From assembly GCA_016389475.1 (NCBI GenBank), contig GCA_016389475.1_3042.1: a DNA stretch of 64,000 bases; one strand, 5' to 3'. Of the stretch, positions 16,635 to 30,274 are shown piece after piece (within the stretch, counting starts at the first letter, position 1; the number at the start of each line of letters is the position of its first letter). The position numbers and the translations under genes were made by a program. This DNA comes from a phage. Below the pieces are notes generated by a model. The model saw only the letters and a list, made by a program, of their open reading frames with translations, was not told the origin of the DNA and searched no databases.

Positions 16635-17021
16635 TTATTCGAGGGAAAGAAGATACTTACTCTGGTAAAACATTCCAGTAATATCATCTATCGTGCTTTG
16701 AATGGCTGGAGGCATTTCTTTATAAATGCTGTTAGATTGGTCTAGTATGCGATCAATCATTTTAATTGTGTCGGTAGGAAGTTTACTGGCATCTGGAATT
16801 GAAGGCGTGTATTTTCTACCAGAATACCCCAAATATTGCTCACCAAATTTATCAATCAAATCTGGCAACTCGGAGAAAATAAAATCGTATGCTTTGTGTC
16901 TAGCATAACTTTTAGTTTCAAAATGTGCAGAATGAAAATAAGCTTGTGCAGCCATTAATAAACCTAAGTATTCATCTGCCTTTGAAGGTTTTCCACTTTG
17001 TGAAAAGTCGCTGAATTTCAT
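16635..17021 (-). CDS. hypothetical protein at the rI.-1 position (128 aa)
   Basis: ORF immediately downstream of rI with ATGA overlap. Assigned by synteny. Confidence 0.55.
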
Positions 17022-17311
17022 TCAGTCTCCAATTTAATGTTCATAATTCTAGCGTATGATTGTGCCATCTCCGCGCCTCGTTCTATACATTCAAAATCAG
17101 AAGAGCACGGGTCATTTTTATAGGTCGTTCTCATAAAACTATAGAACTGTTCAGATGATTCTACGCTTTTATTTTCAAAAAGCATATAAACATGTCTAAT
17201 ACCAGATTCCATAAATTTATCAAAATGAGGATCGACATTCGCTTCAATCGGTGGAGATAAAGCAAACGCTAATCCTAGCATGGCAAATAGTGCCGTTGCT
17301 TTTAAGGCCAT
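17018..17311 (-). CDS. rI: lysis inhibition regulator RI (membrane-anchored periplasmic protein)
   Basis: 97 aa with N-terminal signal-anchor (MALKATALFAMLGLAFALSPPIEA). Length and position next to tk match T4 RI. Confidence 0.8.
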   Translation of the reverse strand: MALKATALFAMLGLAFALSPPIEANVDPHFDKFMESGIRHVYMLFENKSVESSEQFYSFMRTTYKNDPCSSDFECIERGAEMAQSYARIMNIKLETE

Positions 17312-17323
17312 AAAGGCCTCCTA

Positions 17324-17536
17324 TCATTTTTGTCCTGTATTTACTTTATGCCGATGCACGGCCTTAACTTTATCAAGGTATTTTTCAAAATTTCGCAATC
17401 TAGTATAGTCTGCCGGAGATTGGTTGAGTGATACTTCTCGACGCAAAGCTGAAATGATATTTCCAACTTTCCTACGAATTTCATCTAATTGAAGCACAGT
17501 AAGATTGCGAAGTTGCTTTTCAGTTAATTGTAGCAT
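17324..17536 (-). CDS. hypothetical protein (70 aa), basic
   Basis: ORF between tk and rI. Confidence 0.5.
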
Positions 17537-17578
17537 ATATACCCCTTTAGTTAGATAAACCTATTTATAACTTTTGCA

Positions 17579-18160
17579 CTAACCAAGCTTTTTAGTTAAT
17601 TCATTCCAATGTTTTCTGCACAAAGAAACATAAATTTCATCACCAATACAGATTTGATTACCTTCTTTAACTGGTGTTCCATCTTCCATTAATCGAGCTG
17701 TCATAATCGCTTTTTTGCCGCAATGACAAACTGCCTTTAGTTCAATAAGTTTATCTGCAATCGCTAAAAGTTCTTTAGAACCTTCAAACAATTTTCCAGC
17801 GAAATCAGTCCTTAATCCATAAGCCATAACAGGAACATTATATGTATCAACAATTCGGCTTAATTGGTGCACCTGTTCAGTTTTTAAAAATTGGGCTTCA
17901 TCCACAAATACGCAATGAATATCTTTTTGTGCTTCAGCCCATTTATAGAACTCGAAAATATCCATATCATCTGTAATAATATTCGCTTCCTGTTTAATTC
18001 CAATGCGAGAAACAACTTCACAGACAGAATCGCGAGTATCAATAGCAGGCTTAAGAACTAATACACTCATTCCACGTTCTTTATAATTATGTGCAGCAGT
18101 CAAAAGAGAAGCAGATTTTCCAGCATTCATTGCTGCATAAGTAAAAATTAAACTCGCCAT
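17579..18160 (-). CDS. tk: thymidine kinase
   Basis: 193 aa; P-loop AAMNAGKS; C-terminal zinc-binding cysteines (CHCGKKA...CRKHW). Confidence 0.9.
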   Translation of the reverse strand: MASLIFTYAAMNAGKSASLLTAAHNYKERGMSVLVLKPAIDTRDSVCEVVSRIGIKQEANIITDDMDIFEFYKWAEAQKDIHCVFVDEAQFLKTEQVHQLSRIVDTYNVPVMAYGLRTDFAGKLFEGSKELLAIADKLIELKAVCHCGKKAIMTARLMEDGTPVKEGNQICIGDEIYVSLCRKHWNELTKKLG

Positions 18161-18169
18161 ATCACCTTC

Positions 18170-18355
18170 TTAAAGCGTATTCACATAAGCTATTAATTCA
18201 TTTTCTTTCTTATCAAACCGATCAGCAAATTCTTCCTGCTGTTCAGGAGATAGCGGGCCGTATTCATCATAAAAGGTGTTTGCTTCTGTATGCTCATCTA
18301 GAAGTTCATGGATAAGCTCAAACAATTTATCTTTTTGTTCTTTACTCAGACTCAT
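18170..18355 (-). CDS. hypothetical acidic protein (61 aa)
   Basis: Track ORF. Confidence 0.5.
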   Translation of the reverse strand: MSLSKEQKDKLFELIHELLDEHTEANTFYDEYGPLSPEQQEEFADRFDKKENELIAYVNTL

Positions 18356-18523
18356 ATATTAATTTCCAGGAGTTTTAAAATAATTCGCTTTTGCTTAAAT
18401 ATTTCCATAGTTAAATGACTAGTATCTTTTTGACCGATTCCAATGGCAAAACCTTTATTAACAGCGAGTTCAATTAAATTATCAAGCTCACGTAACACTT
18501 CGTATTGTAACTCAAAACTATTC
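18352..18523 (-). CDS. hypothetical small protein (57 aa)
   Basis: Hand-translated ORF (MNSFELQYEVLRELDNLIELAVNKGF...) with ATGA overlaps at both ends. Confidence 0.35.
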
Positions 18524-18749
18524 ATTTTGGTTTACCTTCTTTAACGAAATCAGGATAAGGATAAAATCCTGAATAAAATCCTTCACCTTTATGATTGATG
18601 CATCCTTTATTAGAACAATAGCACCAATAATCGAAATCACAAGCCATTTCATCATTACATAAAGCAAAAACAACAGGCCACTTACACTTTTCACAGTGGG
18701 CATTTTTAAGAATACTAGTTTGGCTCATAACCATGTAACCTTTAAGCAA
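18522..18749 (-). CDS. cysteine-rich small protein (75 aa)
   Basis: CEKCKW...CNDEMACDFDYWCYCSNKGC pattern, possibly metal-binding. Confidence 0.5.
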   Translation of the reverse strand: MLKGYMVMSQTSILKNAHCEKCKWPVVFALCNDEMACDFDYWCYCSNKGCINHKGEGFYSGFYPYPDFVKEGKPK

Positions 18750-18937
18750 TATTCTTCTACATGTTGTTTACGACCTTTCTTATCAATAAAGGTATATTCA
18801 ACGAATGTTCCAATGTAGTCTTTATCTACATCATGTGGACTATTAATTGGACATTTAGTACGGCAAATGCGTTCCCATTGACGAATAATTTCCACTTTGT
18901 TTTTAGGATCAAACGGATGTGGGTAATGTACTTTCAT
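18725..18937 (-). CDS. hypothetical protein (70 aa)
   Basis: Track ORF. Confidence 0.45.
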   Translation of the reverse strand: MKVHYPHPFDPKNKVEIIRQWERICRTKCPINSPHDVDKDYIGTFVEYTFIDKKGRKQHVEEYCLKVTWL

Positions 18938-19388
18938 AATCCACCACTATTAAATCAATATCAGGAGTAAACATGTCGATTAATTTAGAAACCTTATCCC
19001 AATCGCCGCCAGCAATACCACAACCTATGCGTGGAATGTAAATTACTGGTTTAAACAAAAGGGTTTCTGCCTGTAGATTTAATTCTATCATGCAGTTTAC
19101 TAAAGCACCATAATCAAGATTAGGACCTGGTTCGTATTGCGTATACAAGTTATAACATATGCCAAAACCATTAGGTTTATGTTTAAAAACTATAGACATA
19201 TCGCCTAATTTATCACGAGAACCGTACTCAGTAGTGGTTTTATCTATTTCTAAAATTTTGGGATAGGCTCTTGCTAATTGACCCGCTACACCTGAACCCA
19301 TAGTATGAAAACAATTGCACCCGTGCGCAATAATATTACCTTGAAGAAATAGGGCGACAATATCGCCCTTGATATATTTTACAATCAT
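18909..19388 (-). CDS. macro-domain-like protein (159 aa)
   Basis: N-terminal GDIV...IAHGCNCFHTMGSGVAGQLAR parallels the macro-domain signature GDI...NAAN...GGGV. Confidence 0.5.
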   Translation of the reverse strand: MIVKYIKGDIVALFLQGNIIAHGCNCFHTMGSGVAGQLARAYPKILEIDKTTTEYGSRDKLGDMSIVFKHKPNGFGICYNLYTQYEPGPNLDYGALVNCMIELNLQAETLLFKPVIYIPRIGCGIAGGDWDKVSKLIDMFTPDIDLIVVDYESTLPTSV

Positions 19389-19726
19389 CTAGTACTCAAT
19401 CCTCGATTATAAGAATCTACCAAACGGTCAACCATTGAATGACAAGCGGCTTTATCTTTCTCCTCCGCAACTGAACATTCTAAAGTATTCCACTTTTTAG
19501 CATATCGTTTTAACAATGTATCGTTTTTGTATCTACTTGATTTATCTCTTTCTCCGTCTTTATATGCATATATTAATTTCTGCGCAAATTCAGCTTGGCA
19601 TGCTTTATTTTTCCCGCAATAATCCGCTGCAGTACGGTTTACATACTCTCTAATTTCAGTATATGATGTATCTGCTAACGCAGAAAATGAAATTAATCCT
19701 ATACATAAAACCAAAATTTTAGTCAT
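19385..19726 (-). CDS. secreted small protein (113 aa) with N-terminal signal peptide
   Basis: MTKILVLCIGLISFSALA signal-like N-terminus; four cysteines. Confidence 0.5.
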   Translation of the reverse strand: MTKILVLCIGLISFSALADTSYTEIREYVNRTAADYCGKNKACQAEFAQKLIYAYKDGERDKSSRYKNDTLLKRYAKKWNTLECSVAEEKDKAACHSMVDRLVDSYNRGLSTR

Positions 19727-20264
19727 TTACTATTTCCAAAAGTTTATTATTTTTAAGGTAATTAGCCTTTTCTAGGACTTCAGAAGCATATTTAGAACCT
19801 GCTTTAACATTCCATCCCGAATTATAAGAGGATATTGCTTTTCTTATATCGCCCTTATGTATATTTAACCAATAAGAAAGTTCAATGTACGCCCAGGAAG
19901 CTGAATTGGACCGTTTATTCAACATTCTTTTTATTTCAGCATCGGTCATATTATAACCAAGTTCCTTAACTCTTGCTCGCATAGTAGGCAAATAATTTTG
20001 GAACATTCCGTAGGCGTGATGCTTTGGTTTAGATTTTAAATTAACTCCGCCAGAGCTTTCTTGCCATAAAATAGCAGCCATTATATGACCTAATCCACTC
20101 TTGTGGATGTTTTTATGTGTTTTATATTTTCCATCCTTAGAAAATTGTTCCCCGAATTGATACGCGTAACGCATGTTATCGAGTTGGACATTACTGAAAG
20201 TATGCTCGGAGCTATGTGCCATCATTGAAATGGCCAATAGACCAGCGAGTAGTGCTTTTCTCAT
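19719..20264 (-). CDS. periplasmic lytic-transglycosylase-like protein (181 aa)
   Basis: Signal peptide (MRKALLAGLLAISMMAHS). WQESSGG ... AYGMFQ resembles the SLT family-1 catalytic E-S and GLMQ motifs. Confidence 0.5.
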   Translation of the reverse strand: MRKALLAGLLAISMMAHSSEHTFSNVQLDNMRYAYQFGEQFSKDGKYKTHKNIHKSGLGHIMAAILWQESSGGVNLKSKPKHHAYGMFQNYLPTMRARVKELGYNMTDAEIKRMLNKRSNSASWAYIELSYWLNIHKGDIRKAISSYNSGWNVKAGSKYASEVLEKANYLKNNKLLEIVND

Positions 20265-20271
20265 GCTTACC

Positions 20272-20733
20272 TCATTGAGTTTTAATTACTGCTTTAGAAG
20301 CCTTTCCTGGTAAACGACGACTGTTGATAATTGCCATCCTGCATTGGAGTGACGGGTCTTTGAACTTCTCATTAGGTTTACAAACTGTAAATCCAAGCCA
20401 AAGATTTCCATCTGTGATTTCTAAACGTCCAGGACGATATTCAACCCCATCAATAAAATCCTCGTCAATGTCAGGACGCGGAGGCATACTCAGGAATTCA
20501 TTAACTTCTAAAACATGGTCTTTTATTTTGTGGAATAATTCAAAAACATATGTCTCATCAATCTCCCGTTGAATTGCACGATCAAGAAGATGTTGAGAAT
20601 ATTTTAGATGAAACGATGAGACTCCTGCTGCTTTTGATGCCTCACGAATCTCATTGTTAATTTGACGAAACTCCGACTCAAAATGACGACGAAGCTTATT
20701 TCGACGGATAAAAACTTCTGTATTGATAGTCAT
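20272..20733 (-). CDS. regB: sequence-specific endoribonuclease RegB
   Basis: 153 aa, MTINTEVFIRRNKLRRHF..., recognised as T4 RegB; canonical early promoter directly upstream. Confidence 0.8.
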   Translation of the reverse strand: MTINTEVFIRRNKLRRHFESEFRQINNEIREASKAAGVSSFHLKYSQHLLDRAIQREIDETYVFELFHKIKDHVLEVNEFLSMPPRPDIDEDFIDGVEYRPGRLEITDGNLWLGFTVCKPNEKFKDPSLQCRMAIINSRRLPGKASKAVIKTQ

Positions 20734-20754
20734 GTTGTTCTCCTCTTAACTGAT

Positions 20755-20795
20755 AGAAAAATTATACCACAGTCAAGAGGAAAAGTAAACAGTTA
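20755..20795 (-). promoter_or_regulatory. early promoter (GTTTAC-N18-TATAAT) for regB
   Basis: Minus-strand GTTTAC at 20790..20785, TATAAT at 20766..20761 with TGG extended -10, then GAGGAG SD and ATG. Confidence 0.7.
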
Positions 20796-21071
20796 TTCTT
20801 TAAATCTAATCAATTTATTCATAGACTTTGAAACTTCTGCACGAACCTCATGTAAGTTTTTAAGCTGTTCAAGACGCTGCTCATAGTAAGCAATTTCATC
20901 TTCTTCGAGACAGTCCTGTGAATCTTCTTTAAGATAACGTGCATAGTCCTGAAAAGCTTTACGGACTACTTCCTGGAAGTCATCAAGACTTTGAATTTTC
21001 TTAGGAGCGGCAGATACACGACGAGGTGCAGTATAATACTCATAACCAAACCCTGCGCTTAATTGAGCCAT
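20793..21071 (-). CDS. hypothetical protein (start probably the internal ATG at 21071)
   Basis: Track ORF 20793..21113; internal Met gives a compact junction. Confidence 0.45.
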
Positions 21072-21337
21072 TAGTATTTTTCCTCTGGTTGGAACACTGC
21101 GCGACAAGCCCACATACTAGCTTCTTTGAGTTTCGTTTTAGCAATAGTTAACTGATCGAGGCTTTCAGCATAATTCTTCGCGAGTTCATCATCTTCACAG
21201 CTATCGAATGCTTCCCAGAATTCATCGTATAAAGCATCAAAGATAAGTCCTAAACGAACTTCAGCGTCTTTGATAGCATTCACTTTACCGATTTTCTCTT
21301 CAGTATGCGGCTTATAACCTTTAATGTCTTCAATCAT
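21071..21337 (-). CDS. hypothetical acidic protein
   Basis: Track ORF 21071..21373 trimmed to the internal Met. Confidence 0.4.
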
Positions 21338-21551
21338 ATTTGACTTCCTCACCAGTACATAAATCATATTCAACTAAACGAATAGGTTCATGAATGCCAT
21401 ATCCTTGAACAGAAATTTCTGTCGTAGGATAAATTCCATCAATATCACCCATATTCCAGGCTTCATTAAATTGCTGTTCGCCTGAATTACTAAACCACTC
21501 GGCGAAAGCATTTAGCACATCTTCAGAACCTTCAATAATTATCTTTGCCAT
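21330..21551 (-). CDS. hypothetical protein (73 aa)
   Basis: Track ORF. Confidence 0.45.
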   Translation of the reverse strand: MAKIIIEGSEDVLNAFAEWFSNSGEQQFNEAWNMGDIDGIYPTTEISVQGYGIHEPIRLVEYDLCTGEEVKYD

Positions 21552-21913
21552 TACAAACTCTCGGTGAATGTACGAGCGATAACGTCGCGCTGCTGTTCCG
21601 GAGTCAGAGAGTTAAAGCGAACTGCATAACCTGATACACGGATGGTCAGCTGCGGATATTTTTCCGGATGCTTAACTGCATCTTCCAGAGTTTCACGACG
21701 CAGAACGTTAACGTTCAGGTGTTGACCACCTTCAATTTTAACTGCAGGCTGTTGCTCAATTTCAATTTCACGGGCATGCAAACCATAGAAAATTTCTGGG
21801 TCTACAAAAGAGTCCTCTTTAAAGGTTTTAGAAACGATAATTCGTGCTTGAATACCATCTTCAAAATAAATAGTACCTTTGTGTATGCCTTCAAGAATTT
21901 GATATGCTTTCAT
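21551..21913 (-). CDS. autonomous glycyl radical cofactor (GrcA/YfiD-like)
   Basis: 120 aa. C-terminal ...[59 protein letters not shown] is near-identical to E. coli GrcA as I recall it, with the RVSGY glycyl-radical motif. T4 carries a homolog (Y06I). Confidence 0.85.
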
Positions 21914-21920
21914 ATAAACC

Positions 21921-22301
21921 TCAATTAGAAAATAAATTTATCCAAGATTGTTCTTTAATTAAAAACGGCTCAGAATCATATGCCATTAAACTTTGCGTAA
22001 TTAATCCTTTAAAAGGTCCATCAATAAATTCCATGGTAAAATATGGAATTTTATTCATTAGCCGTGCATTAGGAGCAGTACATAAAACTCTGCATCCTTT
22101 GAATACACCTTTTTGTAATTTGTATTGCTTGGGATAAAATTCGCTCAAAATGTTATTATTTGCTAAAATTTCAAAATGATTCACCAATTTATTTTTAATA
22201 GTTTTTGGCGAAAAATAAAGATATTCGAAAAGTTGCGTATCTGTCATCATTGCATTCCAATTACGAAAAACTGCGGACGAGTAATACCACCAATACAGCA
22301 T
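21921..22301 (-). CDS. hypothetical protein
   Basis: Track ORF; start likely at an internal Met. Confidence 0.4.
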
Positions 22302-29253: not shown

Positions 29254-29329
29254 TGGTCGAGGCAGTAGGGATCGAACCTACGACCCAGGACTTAGAAGGT
29301 CCTTGCTCTTCCTTCTGAGCTATGCCCCG
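29254..29329 (-). tRNA. tRNA-Arg (anticodon TCT), CCA encoded
   Basis: Manually folded cloverleaf: acceptor CGGGGCA/TGCCTCG, D-arm GCTC/GAGC, anticodon loop CTTCTAA, T-loop TTCGATC. Confidence 0.8.
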
Positions 29330-29333
29330 TAAT

Positions 29334-29409
29334 TGGGGTGACCGATGGGAGTCGAACCCATGACTACGAGAATCACAATCTCGAGTTCTACCAACTGAAC
29401 TACGGCCAC
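29334..29409 (-). tRNA. tRNA-His (anticodon GTG), CCA encoded
   Basis: Acceptor GTGGCCG/CGGTCAC, anticodon stem CGAGA/TCTCG, loop TTGTGAT, T-loop TTCGACT, discriminator C. Confidence 0.7.
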
Positions 29410-29523
29410 ATTAATACCTACTCCAACAATCATGATGTCTTCACACGAAATTAAGAGAAGAGTGATCAGTTCAACCCCTATAATCGCGTCAAGTAGATAT
29501 TAATGTGACAGTTGTCACAAATT

Positions 29524-29598
29524 TGGCGGACGTGATAGGATTCGAACCTATAACCAATCGCTTAACAGGCGATCGCTCTGCCATTGAGCTACACATCC
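29524..29598 (-). tRNA. tRNA-Asn (anticodon GTT), CCA encoded
   Basis: Acceptor GGATGTG/CACGTCC, anticodon stem ATCGC/GCGAT, loop CTGTTAA, T-loop TTCGAAT. Confidence 0.7.
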
Positions 29599-29602
29599 AA
29601 AT

Positions 29603-29689
29603 TGGTGGGGAGTGATGGAGTCGAACCACCCGAGTCGCAATGACAATGAATTTACAGTCCACACCGCTACCTCTACGGGATAACTCCCC
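29603..29689 (-). tRNA. tRNA-Tyr (anticodon GTA), long variable arm, CCA encoded
   Basis: Acceptor GGGGAGT/ACTCCCC, anticodon loop CTGTAAA, about 15-nt variable arm, T-loop TTCGACT. Confidence 0.65.
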
Positions 29690-29701
29690 TAATTCATAAT
29701 T

Positions 29702-29776
29702 TGGTGGCCCTGGGTGGAATTGAACCACCATCTGGCGATTATGAGTCGCTTGCTTGAACCTTCCAGCTACAGGGCC
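29702..29776 (-). tRNA. tRNA with CAT anticodon (Ile-lysidine type as in T4, or Met)
   Basis: Acceptor GGCCCTG/CAGGGCC, anticodon loop CTCATAA, T-loop TTCAATT. Confidence 0.7.
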
Positions 29777-29777
29777 T

Positions 29778-29853
29778 TGGTGCTGATTGACGGAATCGAA
29801 CCGCCGACATCCTCATTACAAGTGAGGTGCTCTACCTACTGAGCTAAATCAGC
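29778..29853 (-). tRNA. tRNA-Thr (anticodon TGT)
   Basis: Acceptor GCTGATT/AATCAGC, anticodon stem CCTCA/TGAGG, loop CTTGTAA, T-loop TTCGATT. Confidence 0.8.
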
Positions 29854-29858
29854 AAAAC

Positions 29859-29948
29859 TGGCGGAGGCGATAGGATTCGAACCTATGAGTCGCCGGAGCG
29901 ACTGCCGGTTTTCAAGACCGGTGCATTCAACCACTCTGCCACGCCTCC
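29859..29948 (-). tRNA. tRNA-Ser (anticodon TGA), long variable arm
   Basis: Acceptor GGAGGCG/CGCCTCC, anticodon stem CCGGT/ACCGG, loop CTTGAAA, T-loop TTCGAAT. Confidence 0.8.
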
Positions 29949-29950
29949 AG

Positions 29951-30024
29951 TCTCCATACAAGGATTTGAACCTTGGACCTCCTGATCCCAAATCAGGCGC
30001 TCTACCAAACTGAGCTACACGGAG
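29951..30024 (-). tRNA. tRNA-Pro (anticodon TGG), no encoded CCA
   Basis: Anticodon stem CCTGA/TCAGG, loop TTTGGGA, T-loop TTCAAAT. Only 2 nt separate it from tRNA-Ser (Pro-Ser dimer arrangement known from T4). Confidence 0.8.
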
Positions 30025-30034
30025 TAAATTAAAT

Positions 30035-30108
<74 letters not shown>

Positions 30109-30113
30109 AAATT

Positions 30114-30200
30114 TGGTGCGAGAAGTGGGACTCGAACCCACAAGGAAATCATTCCGCAGCATTTTAAGTGCTGTGCCTTTACCAATTTGACCATTCTCGC
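30114..30200 (-). tRNA. tRNA-Leu (anticodon TAA), long variable arm, CCA encoded
   Basis: Acceptor GCGAGAA/TTCTCGC, anticodon stem CAGCA/TGCTG, loop CTTAAAA. Confidence 0.8.
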
Positions 30201-30201
30201 G

Positions 30202-30274
30202 CTGGGAATAAAGGATTCGAACCTTTGCATCCTGGAATCAAAATCCAGTGCCTTACCAACTTGGCTAATTCCCA
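30202..30274 (-). tRNA. tRNA-Gln (anticodon TTG), no encoded CCA
   Basis: Acceptor TGGGAAT/ATTCCCA, anticodon stem CTGGA/TCCAG, loop TTTTGAT. 1 nt from tRNA-Leu (Gln-Leu dimer arrangement known from T4). Confidence 0.8.

Follow-up and report, generated by a model that had tools for sequence, protein, structure and literature searches.

A divergent allele of the phage T4 tk.4/adfM macrodomain gene and its probable role in countering DNA ADP-ribosylation by DarTG2

Introduction

What does a T4-like phage gain from a small gene that the databases describe, depending on the record, as 'hypothetical protein', 'macro domain protein', 'Poa1p-like family protein' or 'phosphatase'? The question is raised by a 159-amino acid open reading frame (ORF) in a 64,000-nucleotide stretch of phage DNA (GenBank assembly GCA_016389475.1, contig GCA_016389475.1_3042.1), the whole of which is referred to here as the window. 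The ORF occupies positions 18909..19388 of the minus strand, stop codon included, and belongs to a family that carries the label 'phosphatase' both in PHROG 335 and in RefSeq records such as NC_054901.1. The analysis presented here indicates that the gene is the counterpart of T4 tk.4, now also named adfM (AdfM, anti-DarT factor Macrodomain), and that it probably encodes an orphan antitoxin, i.e. a DNA ADP-ribosylglycohydrolase directed against the host DarTG2 system. Both the gene and its fold annotation are already public, as is the role of its T4 ortholog, sequences identical to the window protein being present in GenBank, and the gene is of a known kind of counter-defence gene; at issue here are the chemistry that its product is likely to use and the marked divergence of this allele from that of T4.

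Results and discussion

Fold and class of the encoded protein

The ORF is complete, running from an ATG start to a TGA stop and encoding a stand-alone protein with a calculated mass of 17.5 kDa, and the plus strand of the same interval has no open frame and many stop codons. An annotation made from the sequence alone (the first-pass annotation) had read the segment spanning residues 8-37 (GDIVALFLQGNIIAHGCNCFHTMGSGVAGQ) as the ADP-ribose-binding signature of a macrodomain, with failure of a profile search to support a macro fold named as the outcome that would tell against it. That outcome did not occur. The Pfam profile PF01661 (Macro), whose gathering cut-off is 22 bits, matches the protein at 33.1 bits (E=6.2e-8) across positions 2-117 of its 118, and PHROG 335 does so with E=1.4e-71, while a search with the lone sequence retrieved the solved macrodomains BT1257 (1.7e-10), Poa1p, SCO6735, Mycobacterium tuberculosis DarG and TARG1. 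A total of 794 homologs was collected, 52 diverse members of which were aligned (alignment A1) to give a family profile. Searched against solved structures, this profile matched BT1257 at 4.5e-20, TARG1 at 4.6e-17, SCO6735 at 2.7e-16 and Poa1p at 7e-15, and two DarG macrodomains at 1.4e-11 and 1.3e-10.

The AlphaFold2 model calculated from A1 (mean predicted local distance difference test score, pLDDT, 94.6; predicted template-modelling score, pTM, 0.89) comprises a mixed beta-sheet with flanking helices. Comparison of the model with the PDB using Foldseek returned TARG1, Poa1p, BT1257 and DarG macrodomains first, with a probability of 1.00 and template-modelling (TM) scores of 0.72-0.82; the top match, human TARG1/OARD1 (PDB 4J5S), shares about 20% identity with the window protein. 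There were 171 PDB matches at E<=0.001, the best 50 of which are all macrodomains or designed proteins on a macrodomain scaffold. Ranks 1-23 are occupied by proteins of the TARG1/Poa1p/BT1257/DarG type, except for three designed hydrolases built on the macrodomain scaffold, and the coronavirus and alphavirus MacroD-type domains rank lower. Since the A1 profile matches and the Foldseek ranking agree in this respect, the protein is assigned to the TARG1/ALC1-like class, as opposed to the MacroD or PARG types, and the earlier recognition of a macrodomain is borne out by the sequence, by the Pfam and A1 profiles and by the predicted fold alike.

Conservation of the active site

The positions that are invariant in all 52 homologs of A1 are G8, H22, G23, N25, C26, G33, A35, D49, N80, Y82, Q84, P119, G122, G124 and W130, several of which fall in the two loops expected to contact ADP-ribose. 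The first ADP-ribose-binding loop, codons 22-36 (HGCNCFHTMGSGVAG; 19281..19325, minus strand), contains the invariant His22 and Asn25. By motif these residues correspond to His24 and Asn27 of SCO6735, with His22 also aligning with His23 of yeast Poa1p when the lone sequences are compared, and Asn25 standing opposite Asn23 of the PhiKZ AdfM protein (gp104) in an hhalign comparison. The glycine-rich phosphate-binding loop, codons 119-130 (PRIGCGIAGGDW; 18999..19034, minus strand), has A126, G127 and G128 conserved in at least 90% of the homologs, in addition to its invariant P119, G122, G124 and W130, and is placed by profile alignment opposite PRIGCGLAGGKW of BT1257 and PRIGCGLDRLQW of TARG1. 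The catalytic Asp125 of TARG1 is replaced in this loop by Ala126.

The remaining component is Gln84 (CAA; 19137..19139, minus strand), which lies within the invariant motif N-L-Y-T-Q. In the A1 profile alignment this motif is found, without gaps across the catalytic strand, opposite L-I-T-K84 of TARG1 and N-M-I-G-Q of BT1257, and the published structural alignment equates Lys80 of DarG with Lys84 of TARG1 and Gln85 of SCO6735 (PMC9411070). On the strength of these ungapped alignments, together with the published one, Gln84 is assigned to the place held by the catalytic lysine in TARG1 and DarG. The window protein thus carries the features required of an SCO6735-type enzyme, namely a glutamine at the TARG1/DarG catalytic lysine position and a His-x-x-Asn motif, and lacks that required of a DarG-type enzyme, since Gln84 stands where DarG has Lys80. 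As far as can be judged from sequence, therefore, the His/Asn/Gln constellation is the SCO6735 arrangement, the residue matches to SCO6735 (PDB 5E3B) having been derived via the 54%-identical BT1257 (PDB 2FG1) and the published alignment as opposed to a direct residue alignment.

Among solved structures, SCO6735 and BT1257 match the sequence best, and the biochemistry of the former is instructive. SCO6735 is a stand-alone antidote that hydrolyses DarT-made thymidine-linked ADP-ribose, efficiently clearing it from single-stranded DNA and protecting cells from DarT; its Gln85 takes the place of the lysine, such that the Q85A and Q85E variants are inactive, whereas Asn27 locks the glutamine in place, N27S being almost inactive, and His24 adjoins the site (PMC9411070).

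Position of the gene and orthology with T4 tk.4

The first-pass annotation also raised the question of whether T4 has an ortholog at this position, and it does. The window is Tequatrovirus DNA: hundreds of Tequatrovirus genomes match the 1.8-kb neighbourhood of the gene at an identity of at least 95%, that of Escherichia phage vB_EcoM-Sa45lw at 99.7%. The minus-strand order regB, vs.1, vs, tk.4, tk.3, a variable block and tk is that of the T4 record X04567. The T4 counterpart is ORF 60.5, later termed tk.4, described as the '17.5 kDa protein in tk-vs intergenic region', which occupies the same slot between vs and tk.3. Two neighbours serve as anchors of this synteny. Upstream is vs, encoding the valyl-tRNA synthetase modifier (19385..19726, minus strand; PHROG 1256, E=5e-40; 97% identity to T4 Vs), and downstream is tk.3, encoding 70 amino acids (18725..18937, minus strand; PHROG 2008, E=2e-41; 93% identity to T4 ORF 60.1). 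The description of the gene as lying among the early genes fits by position alone, within a minus-strand block of small genes beside tk, vs and regB.

The window protein and T4 Tk.4 are 56% identical over their full length. The two have the same calculated mass, despite lengths of 159 and 155 amino acids, respectively, and their first 38 residues are near-identical; the T4 protein shares H22, N25, the N-L-Y-T-Q84 motif and P119/G122/G124/W130, whereas the window protein has a four-residue C-terminal extension that overlaps tk.3. Gene order and sequence identity together mark the gene as the positional ortholog of T4 tk.4/adfM.

A probable role against DarTG2

Part of the case for an anti-DarT2 function comes from work with this ortholog. 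In a preprint dated November 2025 (bioRxiv 10.1101/2025.11.20.689424), tk.4 was the single significant hit when a T4 transposon library was plated on a DarTG2-expressing host, a clean tk.4 knockout rendered T4 sensitive to DarTG2, and the protein, renamed AdfM, was described as structurally similar to the M. tuberculosis DarG macrodomain. Similarly, a second report (PMC13309987, Cell Reports 2026) describes gp104 of the chimallivirus PhiKZ, also named AdfM, as stripping DarT2-made ADP-ribose from a TNTC-containing oligonucleotide in vitro, with activity lowered by the N23A substitution, and as rescuing DarT2 toxicity. The proposal of the first-pass annotation that such a protein might reverse host ADP-ribosylation accords with the T4 phenotype, whereas no support was found for its second suggestion, the degradation of ADP-ribose-derived defence signals. 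A role against CmdTAC or Thoeris was considered also, and no evidence for either was found.

According to the mechanism favoured here, infection would free DarT2, which would then modify single-stranded phage DNA by ADP-ribosylating the thymidines of its TNTC motifs, with replication blocked as a result. The phage macrodomain, made from the vs-tk.4 message, would bind the ADP-ribose moiety between its two glycine-rich loops and hydrolyse the thymine-ribose bond, yielding free ADP-ribose and replicable DNA. An SCO6735-type reaction is the probable chemistry, in which Gln84, held by Asn25, would position the distal ribose and a water molecule, unlike the lysine-dependent reactions of DarG and TARG1. 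Glucosyl-hydroxymethylcytosine does not shield thymine; T-even DNA should therefore remain a substrate for DarT2 and need an eraser of this kind. Other anti-DarT factors are of different fold or mechanism: in T4, the NADAR enzyme AdfN counteracts DarTG1 (PMC11825919), and AdfB of ICP1 neutralises DarT by direct binding (PMC11481870).

The macrodomain of DarG itself (PDB 5M31/5M3E and 5M3I) has the same fold, class and presumed substrate as the window protein, which lacks the C-terminal DarT-binding domain and has Gln for Lys80; furthermore, the window gene is not paired with a toxin, its neighbours being vs and tk.3 as opposed to darT. PhiKZ gp104 is, like the window protein, phage-encoded, stand-alone and about 160 amino acids in length, with the same proposed role against DarTG2, and in its case the in vitro activity is proven (PMC13309987). 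However, gp104 has the F-P-T-K catalytic lysine motif of the DarG type, and it enters the phage nucleus. Its similarity to the window protein is barely detectable by BLASTP, lying near noise, and although the A1 profile aligns with it at a probability of 96.5% by hhalign, the register near the catalytic strand is of low confidence, with T-Q falling two columns away from T-K. The lysine motif and the near-noise BLASTP score together place the two phage proteins named AdfM in different branches of the class. The T-even AdfM family accordingly constitutes a Gln-type, SCO6735-like branch, distinct from the Lys-type DarG branch of PhiKZ AdfM, and phages would thus have enlisted two or more chemistries to the same end.

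Several observations weigh against the assignment and have to be set beside this evidence. Hydrolysis by T4 Tk.4 was itself deduced from homology in the preprint (bioRxiv 10.1101/2025.11.20.689424); the anti-DarTG2 phenotype reported there belongs to the T4 allele only, and the window protein is just 56% identical to the protein tested, with a differing phosphate-binding loop. The family lacks the mobile loop of SCO6735, longer by five to six residues, which bears Lys89 and Lys94 and has been linked to high activity on DNA (PMC9411070). Eight residues separate Q84 from Y93 in the window protein and in 35 of the 52 homologs, the same length as in TARG1, and BT1257 has six more. The window protein, in addition to being without counterparts of Lys89 and Lys94, is acidic, with an isoelectric point of 5.25, as opposed to the electropositive surface of SCO6735. 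The DarG model of NCBIfam (NF048014) is the best NCBIfam match but scores 27.8 bits, far beneath the family cut-off of 250 bits, with the match confined to the macrodomain portion of its 338 positions; DarG is likewise the best match in PADLOC, again with a sub-threshold score. Lastly, at the one bacterial locus examined, no DarT or other ADP-ribosyltransferase was found beside the bacterial homolog P0090 (Pelagimonas). With these points taken into account, it still seems probable that the gene encodes an antidote to DarT2, and we infer that the divergent window allele shares the substrate and role of its tested relatives.

Alternative functions

Other uses of the same fold were weighed against hydrolysis of DNA-linked ADP-ribose. 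One would have the protein act on small molecules, as a Poa1p-like ADP-ribose-1''-phosphate (Appr-1''-p) phosphatase or an O-acetyl-ADP-ribose deacetylase serving nucleotide or nicotinamide adenine dinucleotide (NAD) metabolism, as the 'phosphatase' and 'Poa1p-like' labels of PHROG 335 and RefSeq would have it. Yeast Poa1p, an Appr-1''-p phosphatase (PDB 6LFQ-6LFU), is indeed among the best sequence and fold matches, there is a weak NCBIfam match to O-acetyl-ADP-ribose deacetylase, and the N-terminal motif of Poa1p is very similar to that of the window protein (HGCNCFHTMGSGVAGQLARAYPK). When the Poa1p residues named as mutagenesis targets in the PDB titles are traced by lone-sequence alignment, His23 is kept as H22 and Ser30 corresponds to T29, a conservative change at a position where 33 of the 52 homologs have threonine. 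However, the C-terminal half of Poa1p is only weakly similar, the third of these residues, Phe152, being Ala126 in the window protein, and the phenotype of the T4 ortholog is specific to a DNA ADP-ribosyltransferase system. The 'phosphatase' label, moreover, appears to have been transferred from yeast Poa1p, and is probably a misnomer for a family of which the T4 member counters the DNA ADP-ribosylating DarTG2 system. Appr-1''-p arises from Tpt1-type tRNA splicing, on which neither T4-like phages nor E. coli are known to depend, and activity towards it is a weak side reaction of many macrodomains; nothing known of this phage demands Appr-1''-p turnover. A small-molecule hydrolase is thus considered quite unlikely.

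That the best fold match, TARG1, is a protein glutamate ADP-ribosylhydrolase raises instead the prospect of a protein de-mono-ADP-ribosylase, which would strip Glu/Asp-linked ADP-ribose from phage or host proteins marked by a host defence transferase, or else tune the marks left by the phage enzymes Alt, ModA and ModB. The Lys84/Asp125 dyad that TARG1 uses on protein substrates is replaced by Gln84/Ala126 in the window protein, and arginine-linked ADP-ribose is reversed by ARH/DraG-type enzymes, not by macrodomains. T4-like phages have three ADP-ribosyltransferases, Alt, ModA and ModB, all of which modify arginine (PMC8120803), and reversal of the phage's own marks was ruled out because of that linkage. 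SCO6735 does act on auto-modified PARP1 as well as on DNA (PMC9411070), whereas DarTG2 sensitivity is the sole phenotype on record for loss of the T4 ortholog, and a protein-directed function is judged very unlikely. A mainly non-catalytic protein, either binding and inhibiting DarT2 stoichiometrically or serving as a sponge for ADP-ribose-containing immune signals such as Thoeris products, would in turn be in keeping with the fast turnover of alleles described below, which is expected of a protein-protein interface in an arms race. There is precedent for such inhibition in ICP1 AdfB and in the catalytically dead Q85A variant of SCO6735, which still inhibits DarT by interaction (PMC11481870; PMC9411070). 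Against this, every residue implicated in SCO6735-type hydrolysis (the His, the Asn, the Gln and the glycine loops) is invariant in the 52 diverse homologs, a sign that catalysis is under selection, the protein is without the DarT-binding domain of DarG (159 amino acids, compared with 338 positions in the DarG model), and no evidence was found tying the family to Thoeris or CBASS signals. This last alternative is regarded as most unlikely.

A divergent allele in a conserved neighbourhood

RegB, Vs.1, Vs, Tk.3 and Tk of the window are 93-100% identical to their T4 counterparts, whereas Tk.4 is only 56% identical. Comparison with X04567 revealed that the difference is confined to a sharply bounded cassette, at 18870-19366 of the window. 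Read along the minus strand, nucleotide identity to T4 is 100% at 19426-19367 (just upstream and the first codons), about 82% over the next 120 nucleotides (19366-19247), which encode the conserved N-terminal loop, and 37-73% over the rest of the gene (19246-18915), before returning to 100% at 18854-18795. The phosphate-binding loop is affected also, reading GIAGGDW, the family consensus, in the window allele and GIGKGNW in T4. A megablast search found 329 phage records in which 80% or more of the window-type allele is covered, whereas T4, T2, T6 and RB68 align over the first 141-150 nucleotides of the gene only.

The pattern resembles what replacement of a cassette would leave behind at a counter-defence locus, and the tk.4 locus may be regarded as a hot spot of allele swapping. 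It would represent an arms-race signature, and as such is counted in favour of an anti-DarT2 function. A further possibility is that the window-type and the T4/T2/T6-type alleles are not functionally equivalent. The window allele, with its consensus phosphate loop and different surface, would then be tuned to another variant of DarT2, for example through direct contact with the toxin, or alternatively to another ADP-ribosyl-nucleic-acid linkage. Such specialisation is considered unlikely; were the alleles to differ in this way, cassette swapping would set which ADP-ribosylating defences a given phage escapes.

With an anti-DarT2 function as the preferred reading, a concrete role would be available for a gene that is labelled 'hypothetical protein' or 'phosphatase' in most of several hundred Tequatrovirus records, and the assignment bears on predicting which therapeutic T4-like phages will plate on E. 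coli and Shigella that carry DarTG2. The Gln-type branch and the swapping of alleles may go beyond the two AdfM reports (bioRxiv 10.1101/2025.11.20.689424; PMC13309987), with the overall picture unchanged.

Expression signals and neighbouring sequences

The stop codon of vs and the start codon of tk.4 share an ATGA overlap (19385..19388, minus strand), which is annotated for T4 also in X04567 and is consistent with translational coupling of the two genes. A Shine-Dalgarno-like GAGGA (19400..19404, minus strand) is positioned 11 nucleotides 5' of the tk.4 ATG; it is unchanged in T4 and matches the ribosome-binding site annotated for ORF 60.5. At the other end of the gene, the 3' end of tk.4 and the start of tk.3 share 29 nucleotides.

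A promoter scan of positions 17000-22000 returned 17 promoter-like sites compared with 19.0 +/- 4.8 in shuffled sequence, i.e. no excess, and no minus-strand site just 5' of tk.4. Visible within the 3' end of vs, 18 nucleotides 5' of the tk.4 ATG, is the sequence TTGACC-N14-TATAAT (19406-19431, minus strand), which is identical in T4, where X04567 annotates potential -35/-10 elements for ORF 60.5. With only 14 nucleotides between its elements it falls short of the spacing of a canonical sigma-70 promoter, and it was absent from the output of the scan; it was rejected as such, and a dedicated tk.4 promoter is not claimed. Within the first 40 nucleotides of tk.4, at codons 7-13 (19351-19369, minus strand), is a hairpin rich in G+C (AGGGCGATATTGTCGCCCT) that precedes a T-rich run. 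It was flagged on both strands by a terminator scan and its stem is identical in T4; with a folding z-score of just -1.79 it was not accepted as a functional element, and it may be a by-product of the conserved coding sequence for GDIVAL.

A second divergent block lies between tk.3 and tk (18151-18734, minus strand), with 20-57% nucleotide identity to T4 and many gaps. It holds three small ORFs on the minus strand: a cysteine-rich ORF of 70 amino acids (18522..18734; PHROG 2306), a second at 18352..18525 (PHROG 3452), and a third at 18170..18355 (PHROG 653), which has 54% identity to a T4 ORF and is not annotated in RefSeq PhiZZ23. On the other side of tk.4, Vs.1 (19719-20264, minus strand; 181 amino acids) is 100% identical to the T4 protein, and PHROGs for lytic tail protein and endolysin match its residues 56-158 weakly. 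The N-termini of both Vs.1 and Vs (19385-19726) are hydrophobic and resemble signal peptides. Further along the window, a cluster of 11 tRNA genes (29254-30274, minus strand) comprises Arg-TCT, His, Asn, Tyr, Met/Ile-CAT, Thr, Ser, Pro, Gly, Leu and Gln, 10 of which are confirmed by Rfam. T4 has eight tRNA genes, so that those for His, Asn and Tyr would be extra in the window cluster.

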